DNA from: Octopus vulgaris
Lineage: Eukaryota
DNA: 64,000 nucleotides
Assembly: GCA_951406725.2 (NCBI GenBank)
Contig: OX597814.1
Location: 189,844,001 to 189,908,000 of the forward strand
Reading direction: 5' to 3'
A program made the translations under genes and the position numbers. This document shows positions 1,152 to 61,077 of this stretch, piece by piece (within the stretch, counting starts at the first letter, position 1; every line of letters starts with the position of its first letter). Under the pieces are notes generated by a model. That model was not told the origin of the DNA, did no database searches, and worked only from the letters and a program-made list of their open reading frames with translations.

Positions 1152-3713
1152 TCATTTATTTTATTTTTTATTTTATTTAGTTTCAGCTCACAAGCTGTGG
1201 CCATGCTGGGGCACCGCCATTTGGTGTTGCTACATGATTTTACTTCACGAATGCTTTTTAGAAAATGCCATCTGGTGCATGAGAGAGTTTGATGCAGCTG
1301 CCCTCATCTGCAACTCCTGTCGTGAAGTAGGTTCATCTGGGACATCTGACAAGAAGAGATCCAGTTTCATTTTAAAGACATCTGCATCCATCCCATGCAG
1401 GTCTCTTAGGTTCTTCAGGAGGATATTGAAGAGCTGTGGGCCTCGGAAGCCCAGGCTATCACAGTATCTTGTCCTACATCTTGATGGCAAATTTGGAGTC
1501 CTTGGCACTATGCAGTAACGCCCAGTTCTGGCATTTGTGTAACTCTCGATGTCAAAGTTTGGGACAAGTCCTTCCAGGATCTTCCAGATGTATATTATGG
1601 CATATCTTTCTCGCCTACGCTCTAAGGAATAGAGTCTCAATCTCTTGAGTCTTTCCCAGTAGCTTATATGCTGCACAGAGGCTATCTTCTTCGTGTAGCT
1701 TCGTTGGATCGCCTCAAGTTCTGTGATTAACTTGACACTGGATGGTGACCATAGCTGAGAGCAATAGTCTAAGTGGCTTAGGACAAGTTTCCTCCAGAGG
1801 ACCATCATGGTTTCCTGGTCTCTTGTTCTAAAGGTTCTAAGAATCCATCCGGTCAGCCGCCTACATTTCATTGCCAGTTTAGCAACATGCACATGAAAGG
1901 TTGCATCATCACTCATGTAAATACCCAGGTCTCGCACTGATTGTGCCTCTGGGATTGCAATCCCTCTAGGTCCAGTGTATTTATTGGGTATTGCATTTAG
2001 TTTTGCATGCTGATAGTATAAAGCTTGAAACTTTTCAGCATTGAACTGCATGCTATTCTTTTCAGCCCACTTGTATATTTTGTCCAGCTCACATTGCAGG
2101 TGCTTAGTGTCTTCAGGGTTCTGTATTGCCTGTGAAACGTTTGTATCATCTGCATAACTTGTGATCGTGGTTCTCTGCGTGGCTGAGGGGGCCATTATGA
2201 ACAGTAGTGGTCCTAGAACAGTGCCTTGCGGAACACCGCTCACTATTTGCGTGTTAATGGAAGTGGCCCCATTGGCTACTACCACCTGACTTCTATCCTT
2301 CAGAAAGTCATGAAGCCATTCTCCCAATTTTCCAACTATGCCAAGATTACGCAGTTTGTGACATATCATTCCATGATCGACTTTATCAAAGGCCTTTGCA
2401 AAGTCGAGATATATCACTTCCACATTTGAGTGGTTGAGCAGTCGTTTCAACACCCGGTCATAGTGTTGTGGGAGCTGAATTAAGCAGCTTCTTCCTGGTC
2501 GGAAACCATGTTGGGTGTCAGGCAGCAAGTCATTTTCTTCAAGGAAGGTGATTAGTTTCCTTCTGACTATTCGTTCCATGACCTTGCTGATGTGTGAGGT
2601 CAGATAGATAGGTCTGTAGTTCTTGGCCTCCGCTCTGCTACCTCCTTTATGAATAGGGCATATTTTACCTTCCTTCAGTTTTCTTGGAAGTTTGCCAGTT
2701 GCAAGGAAGCTCTGAAAGAGGAACTGCAGTGGTTTTGCTAGGACTCTCTTACATACTTTTAGAAGGATTGCTGGGAATCTGTCGGGGCCAGTAGCTGAGT
2801 TTGTTTTCATTTCATCAATAGCCTTTATTACATCTTCTTCCTTTATATCGCTGCCTCAGTGGTAAAGAAGTCAGTTGGATTGCTGACTTGAAAATGCCCT
2901 AGGGGTGGAGTGAAAATACTCTTGAATTGCTCATTTAGTATTTCACTTACCCTCATTGGATTTCCTGTGAGTGTGCCGTCCTTTTCAAGGAGTGGCCCTA
3001 TCCTACAGTGCACCGTAGCTGTTTCTTTGGCATAACTGTAGAAAGCTCTGGGGTTAGATTTTATGTTGTCTATAGCCCAGGCTTCTTTGTCTGCTCTTTC
3101 TTTTTCATGGGAGAGTTGCAGACATTTTTCAATTTCCAACAGTTTTATTTTTAGGCGGGACTTTTCACTGCTTTCAATTTGTTTGTTTAGGCGATTTGAA
3201 ATTTTTGTACGCCGTCTCATTAGAATTTTCCTCTCTCTGGGGATTTTGCTCTTGTGTACAGTGGCCTTTCTCTCTGGGACACATTTGTAGCATATGGCTT
3301 GCATTACAGACATGAATTGTTGAAGTTTTATGTCGATGTCTGGCGAGGATAGATATTCAGGCCAGTTTTGTTTGAGGATCTCTTTCTCAATTTGTTTCCA
3401 GTTTTCCTTATGGAAGTTCACGCTGGAAAGATTCTGAGAGTTTCTTGTAGGCTGCATGTCCATGCTTTCCTTTGGCCCGTACATGGTCAGCTCTACCATG
3501 TTGTGATCCGAGAGTAGAGTCGGCGTCACTTTCACATTATGGATGAGATCCATATTATTTGTGAAGCAGAGATCCAGTACGTTACCTGCCCTGGTTGGTT
3601 GGAGTATTACTTGCTCCATGTACAGAGTGTTGATGAGGTTCAGGAGGGACCTCGCCTGTCCTCGTTCACATCGTGTCATTCTTGGGAGAGAAAGTCCCTC
3701 GGGCCATATATAC
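1151..3713 (-). mobile_element. 5'-truncated CR1/L2-group (jockey-like RT) LINE with 3' UTR stem-loop and A-rich tail
   Basis: Two consecutive minus-strand ORFs give the end of an APE domain plus a full RT; short 3' UTR 1151-1244 runs into (TA)n. Confidence 0.93.
1245..2810 (-). CDS. LINE ORF2, reverse transcriptase and C-terminal part (frameshift-separated)
   Basis: Motifs NYRPI, QHGFRPGRSC, YLDFAKAFDKV, GVPQGTVLGPLLF, YADD, DLGI, SLERRR. Confidence 0.93.
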   Translation of the reverse strand: MKTNSATGPDRFPAILLKVCKRVLAKPLQFLFQSFLATGKLPRKLKEGKICPIHKGGSRAEAKNYRPIYLTSHISKVMERIVRRKLITFLEENDLLPDTQHGFRPGRSCLIQLPQHYDRVLKRLLNHSNVEVIYLDFAKAFDKVDHGMICHKLRNLGIVGKLGEWLHDFLKDRSQVVVANGATSINTQIVSGVPQGTVLGPLLFIMAPSATQRTTITSYADDTNVSQAIQNPEDTKHLQCELDKIYKWAEKNSMQFNAEKFQALYYQHAKLNAIPNKYTGPRGIAIPEAQSVRDLGIYMSDDATFHVHVAKLAMKCRRLTGWILRTFRTRDQETMMVLWRKLVLSHLDYCSQLWSPSSVKLITELEAIQRSYTKKIASVQHISYWERLKRLRLYSLERRRERYAIIYIWKILEGLVPNFDIESYTNARTGRYCIVPRTPNLPSRCRTRYCDSLGFRGPQLFNILLKNLRDLHGMDADVFKMKLDLFLSDVPDEPTSRQELQMRAAASNSLMHQMAFSKKHS

Positions 3714-21750: not shown

Positions 21751-22799
21751 TGTCTAGTAATAATGATCGAGTATCGTTTGTTGCATCTCTATACTGGATT
21801 TATGATTTTAAGAATATTATAAGTACTCTAAGAAACACACAAAATCCGTTAGATTCACTTCAACATTTAAATTTAATTTGTCAACATATTTTCTTTGCTT
21901 TGACATCGCGACCTGTTCACTGATGCGGCACGGAATTTTGTCAGTAAACAGGTCGCAGTCTCAAAGCGACGAAAATATTTTGACAAATTGGATTTAAATG
22001 TTGAAGTGAATCTAACAGTTTTTGTGTGTTTCTTAAATGGCTTATAAACACCTTCCACGCTGCAATTGTTTTCGTTCCAGCACACGATCTCAGATCAGGT
22101 CATTTGCTATGCAAGTACATCTCCGTAAAATATAAGTACTCGTCTGTAGGTTAATTCGTCGTTCCTCATCGATATATAATTCATAAGAATTTTGTGTGGG
22201 ATTTGTAATCTCGGATTTTGCATAGTAGCTTTAATACGCCGTGAATGACATTTGTAATGAAAATCCTTGGTTTCGTAAACTTGATATTTAAGGCGTTACA
22301 AAATGTTTAAGATTTCTCAATGCATAGTTTTCTTCATACGTTGTACATTTGTTACTTAGGGCTTGTTCTATATTTTTACGTGAAATAATTGTATATTATT
22401 ATATATCATGTATATAATATAGTATAATATAATACAATATAATATAATATTATATCATATAATATAATATTATATGATATAATATAATACAATATAATAT
22501 AATATAATATATAATATAATATAATGTTATAAAATTTAATATATAAAATCTTGATATTATATATCATGTATATCATGTATATTATTTATATTCTTTGCAG
22601 AACTATTCATTATGAAATAGAAGCTAATGAGGTATTGACAGTATTTACGCTTTTTCTTGTCATTTTTCTTGTTATTTGAACTCTGCTCCAACTGGTTGTG
22701 GAGTTTTGCGTTGTCTGTTTACATTAGTAAATATACTCTTCAATCGCACTTTTGTAGTATTTTATGTTTTCTTTGGTGCAGAGACCGTTGGTTGTTTCT

Positions 22800-23208
22800 T
22801 ATTTCTTTATTGCCCACAAGGGGCTAAACACAGAGAGGACAAACAAGGACAGACAAATGGACTAAGTCGATTATATCGACCCCAGTGCGTAACTGGTACT
22901 TAATTTATCGGCCCCGAAAGGATGGAAAGCAAAGTTAACCTCGGCGCAATTTGAACTCAGAACGTAACGGCAGACGAAATGCCTATTTTTTACTACCCAC
23001 AAGGGGCTAAACACAGAGAGGACAAACAGGGACAGACAAACGGATTGAGTCGATTACATCGACCCCAGTGCGTAACTGGTACTTATTTAATCAACCCCGA
23101 AAGGATGAAAGGCAAAGTCGACCTCGGCGGAATTTAACTCACAACGTAACGCAGACGAAATACCGCTAAGCATTTCGCCCGGCGTGCTAACGTTTCTGCC
23201 AGCTCGCC
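22800..23208 (-). mobile_element. SINE-B, one head plus 2 units
   Basis: Internal junction aaaata|ggcatttcgtctg near 22983; flanking repeat ggttgtttct. Confidence 0.9.
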
Positions 23209-23562
23209 GGTTGTTTCTAGGTTTCATCTGCTTCTATATTTCATACAATTCATGTTTTATTAGTTCCTGGCTGGCAGCTGGTATCTCTACCATCTGATTA
23301 TCATTCTAGCTGTCCCCAACATTTTCTCTTCGTTCTGTCATTTCATATCGAGATATCAGTTACCTAGTGTACACTCTCATTGAAAAGACAAACCAGCCAA
23401 GTGATGTTATGAGTGAATGCATTGCTATTTCTAGTAGATTAAATACAGTGGGTTCCTTTCAAAGTAAATTCTACGCACTGGCACGCGCGCGTACGCTTGC
23501 ACACACTGACACACCGACACACACACACATACATACACAAACGTGCGCGCACTCATACAGTC

Positions 23563-23976
23563 AGGAGATGAGCTGGCAGAAACGTTAGCATGCTGGGCGA
23601 AATGCTAAGTGGTATTTCGTCTGCCGCTACGTTCTGAGTTCAAATTCGGCCGAGGCCGACTTTGCCTTTCATCCTTTCGGGGTCGATTAAATAAGTACCA
23701 GTTACGCACTGGGATCGATATAATCGACTTAATCTGTTTGTCCTTTTTTTGTCCTCTCTGTGTTTAGCCCCTTGTGGGTAGTAAAAAAATAGGTATTTCG
23801 TCTGTCGTTACGTTCTGAGTTCAAATTCCGCCGAGGTTGACTCTGCCTTTCATCCTTTCGGGGTCGATTAAATAAGTACCAGTTATGCACTGGGGTCGAT
23901 ATAATTGATTTAATCCGTTTGTCTGTCCTTGTTTGTCCTCCCTATGTTTAGCCCCTTGTGGGTAATAAAGAAATAG
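23563..23976 (+). mobile_element. SINE-B, one head plus 2 units
   Basis: Internal junction aaata|ggtatttcg at 23792. Confidence 0.9.
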
Positions 23977-25299: not shown

Positions 25300-26130
25300 A
25301 CTAAAGGCAGCCAGCGAGCTCAGTCGTTAGCGCCCCAGACAAAATGCTCAACGGCATTTCGCCCGTCTTTACGTTCTGAGTTCAAAGTCCGCCGAGGTCG
25401 ATTTTGCCTTTCGTCCTTCCAATGTCGACGAAAATAAGTACCAGATGAGCACTGAGGTCGATGTAACTGATTTCCCCCTCCCACCAAATTTCTGGCTTTG
25501 CGCCAAAATTTGAAATCAATAATTCTAGTGACTAAGGCAGTGAGCTGGCAGAAATGCTTAGTGATATTTCGTCTGCCGCTACGTTCTGAGTTCAAATTCC
25601 GCCGAGGTCGGCTTTGCCTTTCATCCTTTCGGGGTCGATTAAATAAGTACCAGTTACGCACTGGGGGTCGATGTAATCGACTTAATCCGTTTGTCCGTCC
25701 TTGTTTGTCCTCTCTGTGTTTAGCCCCTTGTAGGTAGTAAAGAAATAGGTATTTCGTCTGCCGTTACGTTCTAAGTTCAGATTCCGCCGAGGTCGACTTT
25801 GCTTTCATCCTTTCGGGGTCGATAAATTAAGTACCAGTTACGCCCTAGGGTCGATGTAATCGACTTAATCCTTGTGTCTGTCCTTGTTTGTCCTCTCTAT
25901 GTTTAGCCCCTTCTGAACAATAAAGAAATAAGAATTGTTAGCACGCTAGACAAAATTTCCGCATTTCTTCCGTCTTCACGTTCTGGGTTCAAATTACGCC
26001 GAGGTTGACTTTGCCTTTTCATCCTTCCGAAGTCGATAAGATAGGTGGCAGTCGAGTACTTGGGTCAATGTAAATGACTGGCCTCATCCCCCAAAATTGC
26101 TAGCCTTGTACCAAAATTTGAAACCAATGA
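25300..26130 (+). mobile_element. Nested SINE-B cluster: two old-tail copies, the second interrupted by a 2-unit Tx1-tail array
   Basis: Old tail ccaaaatttgaaa(t/c)caat near 25503 and 26111; repeat attctagtgact at 25522 and 26130; junction ggtatttcg at 25748. Confidence 0.85.
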
Positions 26131-27436
26131 TTCTAGTGACTGGTGAAAGTAAAACCACCCGTTCAAACCGAGTAAAATGTAATTGAGAACATAGAGACAT
26201 TCTTTTGTACTTTTACAAGAATTAAAAGTGCAAAAATCAGTTGATATCATAGGTTGACAACATTCCATAATCTTACCGAATCAGTAATATTTTCAGTGTG
26301 GTATTCTCTTCCCCTAAATATTCTAAACATGGAAATTAACCAGCTCTCGTAAAGTTGGTTACATTTCCTAAGTACCAGAACCGATATTACAGCACAGCTG
26401 CAGATCAAAGTTTTGCTGCGTTCGCAACATATTTATTTAGAACTTTATTCCAGGTGTTGGTTGCTTTCTAAGCTTTTCTTGTACCTTTAGCCCCTTGACA
26501 ATGCTACAGAAAATCAATCAGATATATTACAGAGCGAAGCCAAAAAATACTATATCTCTTTTAGTTCGTACAAAGGGAGAGCAATAGAGGGTGTGAGAGA
26601 GAGAAGGAGAGTTATATAAGGACACAGAAGAGGAAAAAATGTGGAGAAAAGTGAGAGTTAGATATATAGAAAGAGAGATGAACAAGAGAGAAATAGGCGA
26701 AAAAAGAGTCTGACAGAAACTGCGGAGAGGAGATTAAAATAAAGAAAAGGTTGTGCAAAGGAGGTGTAAAGATATAAACAAACAGAAGAGAGAAAGGATG
26801 AGGGAGAATAGAAAGTTGTAAATGGAAGGCATTGGACATGAAAAAGAGGGAGATAGATAAAAGTTGGTAGAAACATAATGGAGGAATGTAAATAAAGAGA
26901 GAGATAAAAAATGGGGGAATCTAAAAAGAGAGAAAGGCTGGAGGTAAATAAAGAGCACGGAAAGATAAGGAGGAAATAAAAAGGTAAAAAGACAGCAGCA
27001 GCGGGAAATAGAAAGTTGATGTGATTGGGGATCTAAATATAGTAATATTTTTTCTTTTAACGTGTGAAAACAATTAGTTGATCAAATCTTTATTCTCTGA
27101 AGAACATGCAGACGGATTTTGTATCGTATTTGAAATTGCAATCTTAGTGAAAACGTTTTGTTTAATAAATATATAATTAGAAGTTGACTATATGCCAAAA
27201 AAAAAAACTTTTCTCGTGATTTGTATACTTTTTTTATAAACATCAAATGATAGATTGTCTTATTAATTTATGAGATCTATGTGTATATACATACATACAT
27301 ACTTACATATATACATATATATATATATACATATGTATGTATATATATATGTATATATATATGTGTCTGTGTAAATCTATATATGTAGATATATATATAT
27401 TTATTTATTTATATATATACATATGTACGTATATAC

Positions 27437-30378: not shown

Positions 30379-30469
30379 AATTTGTTGTTTCTCTTTGTGA
30401 TCTGTGAATCAAATACATGGAGTAGAACATATTGGTGTATAATCATGATGTGATATAAGGTAGAAAAAA

Positions 30470-31255
30470 AAGGCGGCGAGCTGGCAGAAACGTTAGCGCG
30501 CCGGGCGAAATGTTTAGCGGTATTTCGTCTGCCGTTACGTTCTGAGTTCAAATTCCGCCGAGGTCGACTTTGCCTTTCATCCTTTCGGGGCCGATAAATT
30601 AAGTACCAGTTGCGCACTGGGGTCGATATAATCGACTTAATTCGTTTGTCGGTCCTTGTTTGTCCCATCGATGTTTAGCCCCTTGTGGGTAGTAAAAGAA
30701 ATAGGTATTTCGTCCGTCCTTATCTTCTGAGTTCAAACTCCGCCGAGGTCAACTTTGCCTTTCATACTTTCGGGGTCGATTAAATAAGTACCAGTTACGC
30801 ACTGGGGTCGATATAATCGACTTAATTCGTTTGTCTGTCCTTGTTTGTCCTCTCTGTGTTTAGCCCTTTGTGGGTAGTAAAAAACTAGGCATTTCGTCTG
30901 TCGCTACGTTCTGAGTTGCAATTCCGCCGAGGTCGACTTTGCTTTTCATCTTCTCGGGGTCGATAAATAAAGTACCAGTTTCGCACTGTGGTCGATATAC
31001 TAGACTTAATCCGTTTGTCTGTCCTTGTTTGTCCTCTCTGTGTTTAGCCCCTTGTGGGTAGTAAAGAAATAGGTATTTCGTCCGTCCTTATGTACTGAGT
31101 TCAAATTCCGCCAAGGTCGACTTTGCCTTTCATCCTTTCGGGGTCGATAAATTAAGTACCAGTTACGCACAGGGGTCAATATAATCAACTTGATGCCTTT
31201 TTCTGTCCTTGTTTGTCCCCTCTATGTTTAGCCCCTTGTGGGCAGTAAAGAAATA
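30470..31255 (+). mobile_element. SINE-B, one head plus 4 units of 184-185 bp
   Basis: Units start at 30519, 30704, 30888, 31072; TSD tataaggtagaaaa at 30454-30467 and 31256-31269. Confidence 0.93.
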
Positions 31256-32175
31256 TATAAGGTAGAAAACATAAGATATATAAAGGGAGAGAAACGGGAA
31301 GTTTTAAAAATATTGGTGAGGAAGAGTTGGATTTAAACAGTGCAGAAATGATACAAGAAATACAAGATACAATGATTCAAGAAATACAAGAAATATAAGA
31401 AGCGTAAAATTGGTCGGAAAGACTACGGTAGGCATATAAATAACAGAAACCCAACCAGAATAATAATAATAAAAGAATAAATGAATGAAATGGATATATA
31501 ACGAGTTAATGTTCATGGGAAGAGATATAATGAGGAAATGAAAACAGGTATAAAGGAGATTAAATGTAAAAGAAACGAGATCAATGTAGAGAAAGAGAGA
31601 TAAAGAGAATATGTAAAGTGGAGAGAAAGTGGGGGTGATATAAAAAGAGAAGGCTGGAAGTGGAAAGTTGATATGATAAAGGGGTTAAAACAAAGATGAA
31701 GATATTTTTTTTCTGTAATGTGTGAAAACAACCAGTGTATGAAATTCACAAAGAGTATAAAGATGAATTCTGTATGGCATTTGTTATTATAGGAAAAAAA
31801 AAAAGTTTTGTTTAATAAGTATGTAAACAGAAATTGATCATATGCCAAAAGAAAACTTTCTTTGTGGTGTATATATTTTCCTGTACACATCAAATGATAT
31901 ATGATCTTATTAATTTGTGAAATAAAACTATCCTATCGCTCTAGCCGTATAGCTGCCTACCTGATTAAATATACTCGCACGCGCACACACACATGCACAC
32001 AAATACACAAATATATAAGTATTATCGACCATATATACTTAACGTATATGCTTTATTTATTTTTGAATGGACAGGTTTCAATCCAAATCACTACAATTGT
32101 TTCTGTACATTAGTACGAGCTGGAAATTGCTGGGTGTTTTACATTTTATACACAGTTTTAAAATATGATCCAACG

Positions 32176-33968: not shown

Positions 33969-34386
33969 AAAGGTGGCGAGCTGGCAGGATCGTTAGCACA
34001 CCGGGCGAAATGCGTAGCAGTATTTCGTCTGCTGTTAAGTTCTGAGTTCAAATTCCGCCGAGTTCGGCTTTGTGCTTCATCCTTTCGGGGTCGATTAAAT
34101 AAGTACCAGTTACGCACTGGGGTCAATGTAATCGACTTAATCCGTTTGTCTGTCCTTGTTTGTCTCCTCTGTGTTTAGCTCCTAGTGGGTAATAAAGAAA
34201 CAGGTATTTCGTCTGCCGTTACGTTCCGAGTTCAAATTCCGCCGAGGTCGACTTTGCCTTTCATCCTTTCGGGGTCGATAAATTAAGTACCAGTTACGCA
34301 CTGGTGTCAATGTAATCGGCTTAATTCCTTTGTCTGTCCTTGTTTGTCCCCTCTATGTTTAGCACCTTGTGGGTAGTAAAGAAATA
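33969..34386 (+). mobile_element. SINE-B, one head plus 2 units
   Basis: Junction gaaaca|ggtatttcg at 34203; flanking repeat aaacgtaactt. Confidence 0.91.
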
Positions 34387-49135: not shown

Positions 49136-49551
49136 TATTTCTTTACTACCCACAAGGGGCTAAACACAGAGGGGACAAACAAGGACAGGCAAACGGATTA
49201 AGTCGATTACATCGACTCCAGTGCGTAACTGGTACTTAATTTATCAACCCCGAGAGGATGAAAGGCAAAGTCGACCTCGGCGGAATTTGAACTCAGGACG
49301 TAGCGACAGGCGAAATACCTATTTCTTTATTACCCACAAGGGGCTAAACATAGAAGGGAAAAACGGACGGACATAGGTATTAAGTCGGTTACATCGACCC
49401 CCAGTGCGTAACTGGTACTTAATTTATCGACCCCGAAAGGATGAAAGGCAAAGTCGACCTTGGCGGAGTTTGAACTCAGAACGCAGCGGCAGACGAAATA
49501 CTGCTAAGCATTTCGCCCGGCGTGCTAACGTTTTTGCCAGCTCGCCGCCTT
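49136..49551 (-). mobile_element. SINE-B, one head plus 2 units
   Basis: Junction gaaata|ggtatttcg near 49319; TSD ttctttagaggaatacc. Confidence 0.92.
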
Positions 49552-54936: not shown

Positions 54937-55540
54937 AGCATGTATGTATGTGTGCCTATACATATATATATATATATATATAACCAATGTACATATGAAC
55001 GCATATATATGTGTGTGTGTGTGTACGTATTCGTTTATATGCGTATAGTCATTGCTGCTTTGGAAGAGATCAACCAGTGAAAGAAAAATGTAGCACTGAT
55101 TCTCCATTAATTAAACAATTAATGTAGTTGGCCTGTGAAAAGAGCCAATTAAGGGTGGTTGTGGTTGTGCCAAATCAAACCAGCCAAATAGTAGTAGTAG
55201 ATTGTCGGCCAGATTAGCGAGACATACACAACTGTGAAAATAGATATTTTTTCCCGTTTTCTGGTTACAAACCAATAATTTTCTGGTTACAAACCAATAA
55301 TTTTGAAAGTGCCTTGAGTGATCTACACTTGGCATGCAAACGCGTCAAAATATATGTACGGTTTGTTTCCTTTTTTCCTAAAGGTCTTAAAGTGTTCCAT
55401 TTTGCCGCCCACGCGTATAAATATGCAACAGAAATAGTCGCATTGTTAACAGTGCATGTGTTACGAAGGCCAAATTGTACAATGATCTACACGAGATTAT
55501 CCTCATTGCTCACATCTAAAAAACTCATTCTTATTCTTAT

Positions 55541-55949
55541 AGGCGTAGGAGTGGCTTGCTTACAAGGCGGCGAGCTGGCAGAAACGATAGCAAAACCGCG
55601 AAGCGAAATGCTTAGCGGTATTTCGCCTGCAGTTACGTTCCGAGTTCAAATTTCTCCGAGGTTGACTTTGCTTTTCATACTCTCGGGGTCGATAAATTAA
55701 GTACCAGTTACGCACTGGGGTCGATGTAATCGACTTAATCCCTTTGTCTGTCCTTGTTTGTCCCATCTATGTTTAGTCCCTTGTGGCCAATAAGGAAATA
55801 AGTAGCTTTCTTACCAACCACATGGTTCCGGGTTCAGTCCCACTACGTAGCACTTTGGGCAAGTGTCTTCTACTATAGCCTCGGGCCGATCAAAGCCTTG
55901 TGAGCGGATTTGGTAGACGGAAATTGAAAAGAAGCCCGTCGTATATTTG

Positions 55950-57241: not shown

Positions 57242-58097
57242 TACACGCATAAATAACGCAGCAAGCGGGTAGAACTGTAAGCGAGTCGGACAAAATGCTC
57301 AGTAGCATTTCTTCCTGCTCTTTACGTTCAGGGCTGAATTACTACCGAGGTCATCTTGGTATTTCATCATTCCGGGGTTGATAAAATAAGTACCATAAGT
57401 GAAAGTTGGACACCGGAGGCGTTCTAATCGATTTACTCACTTCCTTAAAATTGCTAGCCTTGTGCTAAAGTTTTAAGCCATACATGCATAATATATTTTC
57501 CAAGATAGGGAAATTTTGGCATCTAATATTAGTACGGGCACCTTACAAACAAATCAAATCTACATGAAGGAAATGTAGAGATTTAGTCTCAACAAGGTCT
57601 CGGTTAAATCAAGAATTCTTAAACAATTTATTTGGTGGTTCCTAATGGGTTTAGAACAGCCAAACTTTTCATAGACAGTTTTATTTGTTTAATCTCTTAT
57701 GAAATATAGCTTTATGAAAGAGAAAAACGTGATTACTAAAGATATATAACAATTAATTATGGGTTCCCCTTCGGTTCCTCAAGAGTAAAAAGGCTGGGAA
57801 ACGCCTCTGTAAAGATGCTGTCAAATTACCATCTAGATATAACCTTTTGTGGTTCAATAAATTATCGTTTGAGGTAGCGAGCTGGCAGAAACGTTAGCAC
57901 GGCGGGCGAAATGCGTAGCCGTATTTCGTCTGCCGCACATGTGTTCGTGGTAAGAATTGCTGTTTCTTGGTGTTAATATTGTTAATAACTGTTGTTTCTT
58001 GTTAAGCTGTTGAATAACTTAACTGTTGGAGTTTTCAATTGAAAACACTTAGTGCTTGTGGTAGCACGCGTTGTTCATTCCCCCTTTGGGGGGAAGA

Positions 58098-59624
58098 ATG
58101 TCGTCTAGCATGGAGCCTACCGTTGGAGCAGAAATACTTGTTTCTCCTGTTGAGAGGAGGAAATACATGTCCGGCGAGGAGCCAACTACAGACAAGGAAA
58201 TAGGGGTTTCCCCCGCTACAAGAAGGAATCGCAGAGAGGATAATATATTTGATATTTTTGGAGATGTGTCTGAGAGCTCGTCAGAACTTTCACCAGAAGA
58301 GTTTCCGACTTTGCCAGAGAACAAAGGCATTGTGTCGAAGAGAATAATTGATGTGCCTAGCATCCAGATAGAACCAAAAAATAGAAAAAAAAGTTTTGCG
58401 TTGGCTGCTGGGGGTGGAACCCGGATACTGTCGACGAATAAAAGCGACTTTATGAAATACAGCCAAATGATGAAAATAACTGACAACGGTGTGAAAATTG
58501 AACCTCCGCAAAAGTTATTACAAGAAGAAAAGCAAAAAACAATAATTTTCAAAACATATTGTCTACAAAAAAGAAAAATTGAAAGAATGTCAGAAGAGAA
58601 AATAGAAAAGTGCTTAAAGCCAATATGGGGCGACGTAGTATATCTGAGAAGAGGAAAAAAATTCGGAACGGTGGAAGTAAGGTTCACCAATAAAGAAATA
58701 GCACACAAGAACTCAGTTGAAACGCTGAAAACGAACGACGTGGAGTTAATCCCCTATTATATGGGGATGAGGACGTCGCGAATAAAAATTACAAGGGTCC
58801 CGCCAGAGGTCGAACCTATGTGGTTGTTGGCGGCAGTCCTAATCAAAGAGGTAGAAAAAATTACTCTCCTCCAGGCTACCGCTACGGAAAACCCACGCTG
58901 GGATGGTCAAACAATTAATCTTCTCATTCAAGCGGACCCTAAAATAATTCAAGCAATTCCTGAGACAATTGAGGTAGGGGAGGAGAACCTCGTGGTGTTT
59001 GTTGAGGGCCGAAAACCTCGATGTTTTTTATGTGGTCAATTAGGCCACATTCGAAGGAACTGCAAGGAAAATGAAGAAGAGGAGGAAGAGGAGAAAAAAG
59101 ACAAAGAGGAAGAAGATAAAGAAGAAACAGATGAGAAAAAAACAACAAACAAAAGAAAAATACAACCAGCAACCCAGCCGAGAGCGGCGACTACTACAGA
59201 ACAACGACCAAAAAAGACTGCCAGAAGAGAAAAAGAAGAAAAAGGCATAATAGCCGTATACACTAAAGATACTGAGCTCATGAGAGACATTCAACTGATA
59301 AAGACTGTAAAAAAAATAGATAACCTTTCAGAGGAATTTATCAATTACGACATATATGAAGTCTCAAATAAGACTTATAGAATTCTACAAAATAAGTACA
59401 GAAAGACTGTATCTTCATTGAGATCAGAATTTAACAAGTCGATATTTCATGGATTACCAGCCCCGATCCCGCGAGAAAAGGAAAAGGTGGAGATTCCCCC
59501 TCCACCTGATAATTCTGTGTCGGTGGTGAGACGGGATTTTGACAAATCTATTTCCCAAGACCGTCCACCTCCGACCCTGGATCAAAAAAAAGGTGGAGGG
59601 TCCCCCTCCACCGGACAATCCTAA
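58098..59624 (+). CDS. Non-LTR ORF1 (gag-like nucleic-acid-binding protein with CCHC zinc knuckle)
   Basis: Uninterrupted ORF of about 508 codons from ATG 58098; CFLCGQLGHIRRNC (CX2CX4HX4C) preceded by a putative RRM-like region and followed by an acidic/basic low-complexity tail. Confidence 0.88.
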   Translation: MSSSMEPTVGAEILVSPVERRKYMSGEEPTTDKEIGVSPATRRNRREDNIFDIFGDVSESSSELSPEEFPTLPENKGIVSKRIIDVPSIQIEPKNRKKSFALAAGGGTRILSTNKSDFMKYSQMMKITDNGVKIEPPQKLLQEEKQKTIIFKTYCLQKRKIERMSEEKIEKCLKPIWGDVVYLRRGKKFGTVEVRFTNKEIAHKNSVETLKTNDVELIPYYMGMRTSRIKITRVPPEVEPMWLLAAVLIKEVEKITLLQATATENPRWDGQTINLLIQADPKIIQAIPETIEVGEENLVVFVEGRKPRCFLCGQLGHIRRNCKENEEEEEEEKKDKEEEDKEETDEKKTTNKRKIQPATQPRAATTTEQRPKKTARREKEEKGIIAVYTKDTELMRDIQLIKTVKKIDNLSEEFINYDIYEVSNKTYRILQNKYRKTVSSLRSEFNKSIFHGLPAPIPREKEKVEIPPPPDNSVSVVRRDFDKSISQDRPPPTLDQKKGGGSPSTGQS

Positions 59625-59639
59625 TTAAACAGGTAAGTG

Positions 59640-60050
59640 ATGGCTATTCACATTGGTTGTTTAAATGTTCATGGCCTGTTGTCAAGCTGGAAGCAAGGAC
59701 GCTTTCTAAATGACATCAGGTCGAGAAATTTGGATGTAATTGTTGCAACGGAAACCCGGGTGAAGGGGCCAAGAGATCTGCTCCCCCTCCTGAATGGCTA
59801 CGAGAAATACGTTTCTCCGAGTCGGGCGGGAGGTGGGGGTGGGGTGTTGGTCCTACTAAAAAGAAACCGGGTAGCCAAGAAAAAGTGACCCAGAAGGCAG
59901 GCTGGTCGTTCTCGACTTGACATTCAGTTGTGGCAAGACAATCAGGCTGGTCGCTATTTACGCACCAAACATTATTGGCCTGCAAACTGAATATTTTCGT
60001 GGCCTAGGAAAGTTCCTAGCCACGTCGCATTCACTGTTGTGCGTGCAAGG
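59640..60050 (+). pseudogene. ORF2 AP-endonuclease N-terminal fragment (frameshifted, truncated before GDFN)
   Basis: IGCLNVHGL, DVIVATET, GGVLVLL; after a frameshift near 59885, DPEGRLVVLD and LVAIYAPN; then jumps to 3' UTR-like sequence. Confidence 0.87.
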
Positions 60051-61077
60051 AACCGTGTGAATAGACGAGGAAAAAAAAAAAGGAAAAATAAAAAGGTATC
60101 AGCGGTAGATCGGGGCTTGTGGGATCGGAGCGTAACTTGATCATCGCTTCATTTGTATTGTTTTTGTACTGTGTATTCCATTCGATTTTTATGTATTATA
60201 TTTTATTTTTGATGTCACATTTATATAAAATCATATCGATTCACTGATCCCATCAGTTGTACTGTCCATATCTATGTTTGGCCCCCGGTGGGCAATAAAG
60301 AAATTCGTATTTCGTCTGTCTCTACGTTCTGAGTTCAAATTACGCCGAGGTCGACTTTGCCTTTCATCCTTTCGGGATCGATAAATTAAATATCTGTTGC
60401 GTACTGGGGTCGATCTAATCGACTGGCTCCCTCCCCCAAAATTTCAGGTCTTGTGCCTAGTGTAGAAAAGAATGAATTATCGTTTGAGGGGTCCTTTAGA
60501 CAGGCTTTAAAATTACGTTCTACCTTCTTAAAAAACACGGAACTACATATAATATAGTCGTAATGGCCATGTCTGGAATACTTTCGATCATAAATTTCCC
60601 AAAGCAGGATTTTCCTTATCAAGAGTTTCACAGCAATAATAAATCTAATGTATGTAGCAAGTCTGGTCTGGTTCCAATTCTATTAAGTGCAGCCCATTCG
60701 TCGTTAACTGTGTGGTTTGCCGTTACAGTGTAAGAAAATATATTATTATAAAAGTGCTTTACCTACAAACAAAGAAATAAACTTTCCAATTGAAGACCTG
60801 GTGAAATGTGATGATTAAACATTCATAAGCTTCACAAAGTTATTAGTGCCAGTATTATTGAAGTATATCAAAGTGTTCTAATACTACTTCGAAAACTTTG
60901 AAGAATAATCCTTCCAATTATTTATTATTTTGAAAGCAAATCTGATGTGTAGTTTCGATGATCGCTTTGCAACCAGGCGGTCACAAGTTCAAACTTAATG
61001 CAGGTCTTTATTATTTTATTTTTTTCATCTATAACCAAAGAACAGCCAATGCCATTTGGTAAAGTATGTAGATTGAA

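Follow-up and report, generated by a model that had tools for sequence, protein, structure and literature searches.

The window, the whole stretch of DNA that was analysed, comprises 64,000 nucleotides of the Octopus vulgaris genome (contig OX597814.1, positions 189,844,001 to 189,908,000 of the forward strand), and coordinates without a locus name refer to it. On its forward strand, between 30454 and 31269, lies a tandem array of a short interspersed element (SINE) in which one head is followed by four body-plus-tail units. Head and units together (30472-31255) are enclosed by a target site duplication (TSD) of 14 bp, the left copy of which (TATAAGGTAGAAAA, 30454..30467) is that of the founder copy and the right copy of which is at 31256..31269. 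The single tRNA-like head (30472..30518) corresponds to SINE nt 1-47 and consists of the 5' arm and loop of a hairpin, the 3' arm of which starts at nt 48. It is followed by unit 1 (30519..30703; nt 48-231, T219 tail), by unit 2 (30704..30887), the first 20 nt of which are a rare haplotype common to unit 4, by unit 3 (30888..31071) and by unit 4 (31072..31255; C219 tail), which is likely to be the founder body.

Six one-headed arrays with repeated body-plus-tail units had been reported in the window in the preliminary description, and parsing confirmed all six, together with exactly eight internal junctions (22983, 23792, 25748, 30704, 30888, 31072, 34203 and 49319), at all of which a tail is followed directly by GG(T/C)ATTTCG. 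Two dimers are on the reverse strand, one with a 10-bp TSD (22790..23220) and one with an 18-bp TSD beginning GGTATT (49136..49549), and two are on the forward strand, one with no TSD found and followed by GGTATT (23564..23975) and one with a TSD (33972..34386). The remaining forward-strand array (25522..26141) is compound, with an internally deleted head, two units and a junction from tail to nt 15 of an older sister SINE. It had also been stated that TSDs flank whole arrays; they were found for four of the six, but none was found for the array at 23563, and at 25535 a TSD-like 12-mer repeat encloses the larger compound, older sister SINE included. Head hairpins with an internal deletion between short direct repeats were seen repeatedly (window 25551; L033:4975 and 8655; L079). 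A SINE monomer is also present inside a copy of another abundant SINE family (window 55530-55860), and the same host family is occupied at a similar place in L122.

The young monomer (family B) is 231 nt long. An A-box-like motif (nt 8-19) and a B-box-like motif (GTTCAAATTCC) were seen in its head; a search of the SINE with ARAGORN and Rfam gave zero matches and no tRNA call. In the genome, of 2.8 Gb, at least 84,102 intact 25-nt tails were counted (an undercount, owing to a trailing condition in the search), and 24,847 exact junctions in which the 25-nt tail runs directly into nt 48 (GGTATTTCG). A junction 19-mer occurred 43,993 times compared to 0 for its reversed control, which is far beyond chance. 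TSDs, mostly of 12-18 bp, were found for 45 of 100 scored elements, and the last 34-43 nt of the tail match two LINE families (82% and 89%). The element is a short, non-coding, dispersed, high-copy sequence with TSDs and with a 3' tail shared with a LINE, as is characteristic of tRNA-derived SINEs. Family B is approximately 5% decayed, and three older sister families (O1, O2 and O3; 11-16% decayed) share nt 1-166 with it and differ in their tails.

Elements were parsed in the window and in 140 loci of 10 kb (80 random, 40 chosen for a junction and 20 neighbouring the window), with frequencies taken from the 80 random loci only. In these 800 kb, 18 of 49 SINE tails were followed by nt 48 and 2 by nt 15, and 12 of the 43 elements starting with a young unit were arrays. 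Only 42 of 1177 GGTAT sites were the nt-48 site. Arrays end in a B or an O unit, and every unit ahead of the last has a B tail. A variant of the junction, in which the end of the tail is doubled (GAAATA twice) ahead of nt 48, was seen in L004, L040 and L079.

The same base of the SINE is occupied by a LINE. On the forward strand of the window, a SINE TSD, a G43/C48 head and nt 48-63 (57860..57935) stand in front of an internally deleted L1/Tx1-type LINE at SINE nt 48, the 3' tail of which resembles that of the SINE (57936..60305), and the remainder of the host SINE, with an older sister tail type, and the right TSD follow (60306..60489). This copy retains an intact ORF1 of 508 aa with a zf-CCHC domain (58098-59624) and, from 59640, a stub of ORF2, most of which is deleted. 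The full-length LINE is 5.35 kb long and encodes a zf-CCHC ORF1 and an ORF2 of 1133 aa with endonuclease, reverse transcriptase and zinc domains; the best solved relative is L1 ORF2p (E 2e-64), and the closest named homologue among the matches listed is an Argonauta protein. Two ORFs, with a CCHC knuckle in ORF1 and an AP endonuclease and reverse transcriptase in ORF2, and target specificity with a TSD are features of the Tx1 clade, a label that rests on structure and targeting, as no named Tx1 reference was among the 120 homologues listed. An unrelated reverse transcriptase fragment (window 2133-2846, reverse strand) is 27% identical to the LINE ORF2.

Of 72 intact LINE tails, counted by eye, 70 were at nt 48 (49 before C48, 19 before G48 and 2 before T). 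In all 18 full-length copies aligned, nt 48-63 was present on both flanks. The LINE copies were approximately 1% apart and the flanking SINE heads and bodies 6.8% and 7.4% apart, respectively, and the copies were therefore inserted independently; a head borne by the LINE itself was rejected on the same distances. One of four Mantel tests gave a hint of covariation of LINE 3' ends with downstream SINE bodies (r=0.41, p=0.03), which would agree with a degree of block movement. At the window LINE the left and right copies of nt 48-63 are not identical, and 9 of the 18 full-length LINEs have T at nt 61 in the left flank only; the final part of the duplication is therefore probably contributed by the 5' end of the LINE. 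At L253 (C3:153111001-153121000) a SINE-LINE-SINE compound occurs twice, 6450 bp apart and with the same flanks, as a local segmental duplication.

In a tree of 29 LINE 3' ends, the 19 C48-group copies formed a clade (100/100) with end branches of 0.1-0.9%. The tree took 10 of the 19 G48 copies, three of which were short fragments with unreliable long branches; the seven usable ones had end branches of 2.4-5.8%, equal to the age of family B. The old G48 LINE subfamily is the likely builder of the arrays. The endonucleases of the two groups were compared by means of one decayed G48 copy (82-92% identical in four pieces). As the tail of the nt-48 LINE is not the best match to that of the SINE (82%, compared to 89% for a sister LINE inserting elsewhere), its putative role as carrier is deduced from the shared site, and several LINEs have probably served the SINE as carriers. 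Where sister LINEs have similar tails, the tail runs out into (TATC)n, (ATT)n or unique DNA, and a search for the target pattern of the sister LINE gave 6 matches of unclear origin. Related LINEs (41-55% identical in amino acids) with similar tails, ending in (TATC)n or (ATT)n, were seen in L018, L038, L028, L082, L098 and L014, and LINEs of this kind may feed the abundant microsatellite loci of the genome.

Target-primed insertion into a resident SINE, as had been proposed from the window, was supported at nt 48 by the LINE at the same base, by two-headed forms and by arrays of young units on old ones. A genome-wide search for two heads separated by a target duplication (first head, then nt 48-57, 2-16 nt and the second head) matched at 59 places, a figure which is not a count of events, some matches being local duplicates or repeats of the head block. 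Eight of nine distinct loci that were read consist of a resident head, a duplicated stretch from nt 48 to approximately nt 60-63, often AA, and a full young copy, and continue through a tail-to-48 junction into the resident body, which in several is an old sister copy; the target duplication in these forms is 13-17 bp. The same form was found 48 times genome-wide at internal tail-to-48 junctions (some of them local duplicates, L281), and in all seven such cases read the headed copy is followed by a restart at 48. At one of these (L282) the left duplication mismatches the right-hand unit, which could reflect priming within a read-through dimer RNA. A 65-bp block (head, nt 48-63 and AA) occurs in tandem, giving three heads running, in L146 and L152 and in paired matches among the 59. 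At L078:4556 (forward strand) and L286, a SINE inserted in antisense into a resident SINE at GGTACTTA, with an 8-bp TSD, and a sister LINE likewise antisense in a SINE body were seen.

The restart base, nt 48, is the first base past the tetraloop of a 13-bp hairpin (nt 31-43/48-60). This hairpin was considered as a targeting signal and rejected: it is strong for the G43/C48 copy only (z -3.85, compared to -0.47 for T43/G48 and -0.55 for the junction). As internal junctions, which are without the upstream hairpin arm, are hit too, the arm is dispensable and the hairpin is not needed for targeting.

Young units were also found on much older ones. At 30 loci the next unit starts with the O1/O2 haplotype; in 20 of these, decay is 11-27% in the last unit compared to 1-9% in unit 1, and at many young-on-old arrays the old TSD is still visible. 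Three of the 30 are two-headed, compared to 1 of 73 in the general sample, an excess which is not significant (p=0.07) and would be weakened further by L140, a second two-headed case in the general sample. Decay was lower in first than in last units (0.040 vs 0.050; n=35, p=0.017).

The absence of a second head had been explained by annealing of the cDNA to the 16-nt overhang of the target, with the resident head kept, and as a rule this was not supported. Roughly one young monomer in three has a compensatory G43/C48 pair (both bases present in 14 of 52). Heads of this type were found in 16 of 73 arrays, and in 15 of those 16 the next unit starts with G; internal units start with GG in 114 of 121 cases, with C48 junctions in 3 of 121. 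With the resident head and overhang retained, head and next unit should match at nt 48, which they do not. G43 heads were present in 7 of 19 arrays ending in O3; for comparison, the figure was 1 of 23 among O3 monomers (p=0.015) and 16 of 48 among B monomers (p=0.78).

Heads were further profiled on 22 residents at least 10% decayed (17 from the O1/O2-haplotype loci and 5 from the main sample, leaving out three two-headed loci and one nested at nt 15). In bins of nt 1-12, 13-24, 25-36, 37-47 and 48-63, the second of which is biased by a search pattern that fixed nt 16-23, unit 1 on these residents differed from the B consensus by 16, 6, 11, 3 and 4%, compared to 13, 7, 10, 6 and 7% for B monomers and 24, 17, 31, 11 and 28% for O monomers. 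In the last two bins the values were 3.2% and 3.9%, compared to 11.2% and 28.2% in old monomers, and several heads are a mosaic in which the 5' side is of the old type. By these comparisons the head and nt 48-63 are of the donor type in most arrays, and the cDNA is likely to join further upstream and to replace most of the resident head. Retention of the overhang survives as a minority route (2 of 27 one-headed arrays by eye, and probably units 2 and 4 of the tetramer).

The reading that we hold to be quite probable, on sequence comparison, is that one-headed arrays arise by insertion of a SINE at nt 48 of a resident copy by means of LINE enzymes, with the cDNA pairing with and replacing the resident head. 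The SINE would insert by target-primed reverse transcription using the enzymes of the L1/Tx1-type LINE that occupies nt 48, and the cDNA would run to the 5' end of the RNA, pair with the homologous head of the resident and mostly replace it, switching at points that vary within nt 1-63 and are usually far towards the 5' end. The founder TSD stays around the array, and the internal tail-to-48 junctions are targets in turn. In a minority of joins the 16-nt overhang route would be taken, or annealing would fail and leave two heads. We infer that the join is made during integration and not by later recombination between heads, as we do which LINE carried which SINE.

Insertion might instead always be two-headed at first, one head being deleted later by recombination between the 60-bp heads. 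The two-headed forms themselves agree with such a course, as do the mosaic heads (old type at nt 19 and 36) seen in five of the eight one-headed arrays whose resident is of the oldest sister family. It is nevertheless unlikely, because 59 exact two-headed forms compared to 24,847 exact junctions would require near-complete later deletion, and because crossovers placed at random within nt 1-63 would preserve much of the resident head, whereas the heads are on average donor-like over nt 13-63.

Local duplication, by unequal crossover or slippage, or the movement in blocks of a few multimer masters is a decidedly poor candidate for the origin of the arrays. The units of dimers are unrelated, with a median distance of 0.099 compared to 0.105 for random copies (n=34; 5 of 34 less than 5% apart), a crossover in a monomer cannot yield a tail-to-48 junction, and the last units of arrays belong to at least four families, which also speaks against descent of all dimers from one ancestral dimer master. 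An Alu-like single dimer master was rejected on these grounds, and a retrozyme or rolling-circle multimer because no ribozyme was found in Rfam and dimer units are approximately 10% apart, not identical. Mobilisation of arrays as blocks, previously read from the flanking TSDs, is not needed, since the founder TSD simply persists, and no mid-unit 5'-truncated array with a clear fresh TSD was seen among the 9 listed (by eye). A correlation of first- and last-unit ages was tried as a test of block movement (rho 0.001) and discarded as powerless, since the halves of single units are uncorrelated too.

Closeness within arrays, refuted for dimers, does apply to longer arrays. Three arrays are long, with 7, 7 and 10 restart sites observed, and in these the internal units are mostly 0-1% apart and the last unit is 6.5-16.5% away. 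The distance of 19 of 80 adjacent unit pairs is below the 1st percentile for random pairs, the nearest neighbour of 39 of 133 units lies in the array to which the unit belongs, and the closeness of adjacent units increases with array length. Local duplication holds as a second tier: insertion seeds the array and local duplication lengthens it. Unequal exchange or slippage would copy the internal units of an existing dimer and so give long uniform arrays.

A single event in which the reverse transcriptase copies SINE RNA up to nt 48 (the hairpin loop, perhaps cut) and jumps to the tail of a second RNA is very improbable, for although nt 48 lies directly past the tetraloop of the hairpin, the head goes with unit 1 and one TSD surrounds the array, it gives no account of two-headed forms with duplication, of LINEs at nt 48 or of bodies decayed by 11-27% behind young units. 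Free 5' ends at that base are also rare, L081 being the one candidate in 22 listed headless starts, and C48 RNAs are common yet C48 junctions number 3 of 121.

For the tetramer itself, an ABAB pattern had been described. Units 2 and 4 do share variants (59C/61T/63C/67T), but these are confined to the first 20 nt (nt 48-67), and the two units are no closer overall (11.4% apart) than others: pairs 1-2, 1-3 and 1-4 differ by 10.3-10.9% and the two remaining pairs by 13.6% and 14.7%. A duplicated dimer is ruled out by these distances. The 20-nt haplotype had at least 13 matches genome-wide (a trailing condition drops some, unit 2 included), and at that rarity its sharing is not due to chance. It spans approximately one target duplication (nt 48-63; the fourth site is a CpG) and is probably a duplication retained when the overhang was kept. 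In the simplest history, unit 4 would be the founder with its TSD, unit 2 would have arrived keeping the founder overhang, and units 3 and 1 would have arrived with their own 5' ends. A read-through dimer (units 2 and 3) as donor fits as well, and is the sole hint of multimer mobilisation here. In public contigs the right junction of the tetramer is present in two other organisms (B and D) and the left junction in B. For organism C an empty site is suggested by one 831-nt contig, in which the right flank is present as far as the TSD and, to judge from equal depth, the left flank as well. Polymorphism in unit number was also looked for; among the pieces listed none spans the whole array.

Target choice differed with tail type. 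In a deduplicated sample enriched for nt-48 junctions, T219 tails were followed by nt 48 in 165 cases, by nt 15 in 3 and by other DNA in 81, and C219 tails in 15, 16 and 45 cases, respectively. At sites in other DNA, T tails were followed by G in 52 cases compared to A in 8, and C tails by A in 25 compared to G in 8 (p=2e-9). The second self-insertion site, nt 15 (AGAAACGTTAG), was used mostly by C219 tails (16 vs 3; window 25931; L019, L048, L082, L105 and L114). Two-headed SINE insertions numbered 2 on C48 residents (neither of them true) compared to 59, although C48 sites are common (23 vs 30 in the sample); the SINE has spared the G43/C48 variant, which the younger LINE clade subsequently took up as a target. 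A test for RNA-templated bases at 3' junctions gave 13 sites vs 4 in 35 TSDs (p=0.049, the sites not being independent), which is suggestive only. The dependence of target on tail type can be accounted for by the use of different LINEs as carriers or by read-through RNA that pairs with the nicked DNA.

More tentatively, and with somewhat less than even confidence, a heritable RNA-assisted targeting loop with an arms race may be envisaged. Read-through RNA behind the tail would pair with the nicked target, so that a lineage would inherit its landing site, T219 tails going to G-starting sites and nt 48, and C219 tails to A-starting sites and nt 15. Each hit would place a donor head over a resident head, a genome-wide retro-conversion of pol III heads, and the compensatory G43/C48 variant would have escaped the G48-specific machinery until the younger LINE clade switched to it.

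Comparison with known systems draws on portions of the published accounts. The crocodilian SINEU-3 shares the target of Tx1-Mar, and sequential insertions give tandems (Kojima 2015; PMC4494074). The octopus SINE likewise shares the target of a target-specific Tx1 LINE; the target in crocodilians, however, is a Mariner DNA transposon and the tandems sandwich a TSD, whereas the octopus SINE targets its own head region and loses the second head through homology. The 5' junctions of R2 in PRINT are mostly seamless ('anneal'), a minority ('join') duplicating the shared stretch (PMC11371274). There, as here, the 3' end of the cDNA is homologous to the upstream target, and the template 3' tail of R2 anneals to the nicked target; R2, unlike the present LINE, has a restriction-like endonuclease, an rDNA target and 28 nt of homology on an engineered template, compared to 63 nt of natural homology and an AP-type endonuclease. 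The TSD-(SINE)n-TSD multimers of Scapharca broughtonii (PMC11481361) also have one complete head, head-truncated repeats and one TSD pair, but theirs are truncated at both ends, with unequal recombination suggested by the authors, whereas here all units have a full tail and dimer units are unrelated. Squamate SINE-derived satellites and jerboa Dip multimers (PMC10702118) are similarly tandem arrays of SINE parts that homogenise with length; in the portions available, no site-specific self-insertion is described for them, and Dip multimers are full-length. The repeats of O. vulgaris include active L1-Tx1 elements and many unclassified SINEs (PMC13282606), and the available parts of PMC4824008 and PMC4758252 contain no identification of this SINE. 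No report of a SINE targeting its own family, or of these octopus arrays, was found in the literature searched, and repeat databases or supplements may name the families.

The arrays are a real feature and a novel twist on target-specific Tx1-type mobilisation, in which the passenger is also the target and homology makes the join seamless. They offer a concrete account, open to testing, of how dispersed SINEs could turn into tandem arrays and seed satellites, self-targeting making the dimer and duplication extending it. They also constitute a natural experiment on how the 5' end is joined in non-LTR integration, a step that is poorly understood, and comprise tens of thousands of events in which donor and target can be distinguished by diagnostic bases. 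The shift of the LINE from G48 to C48 is a recent target switch of use for studies of the endonuclease. For the annotation of cephalopod repeats, SINE heads overwritten by younger copies mean scrambled subfamily phylogenies and age estimates.
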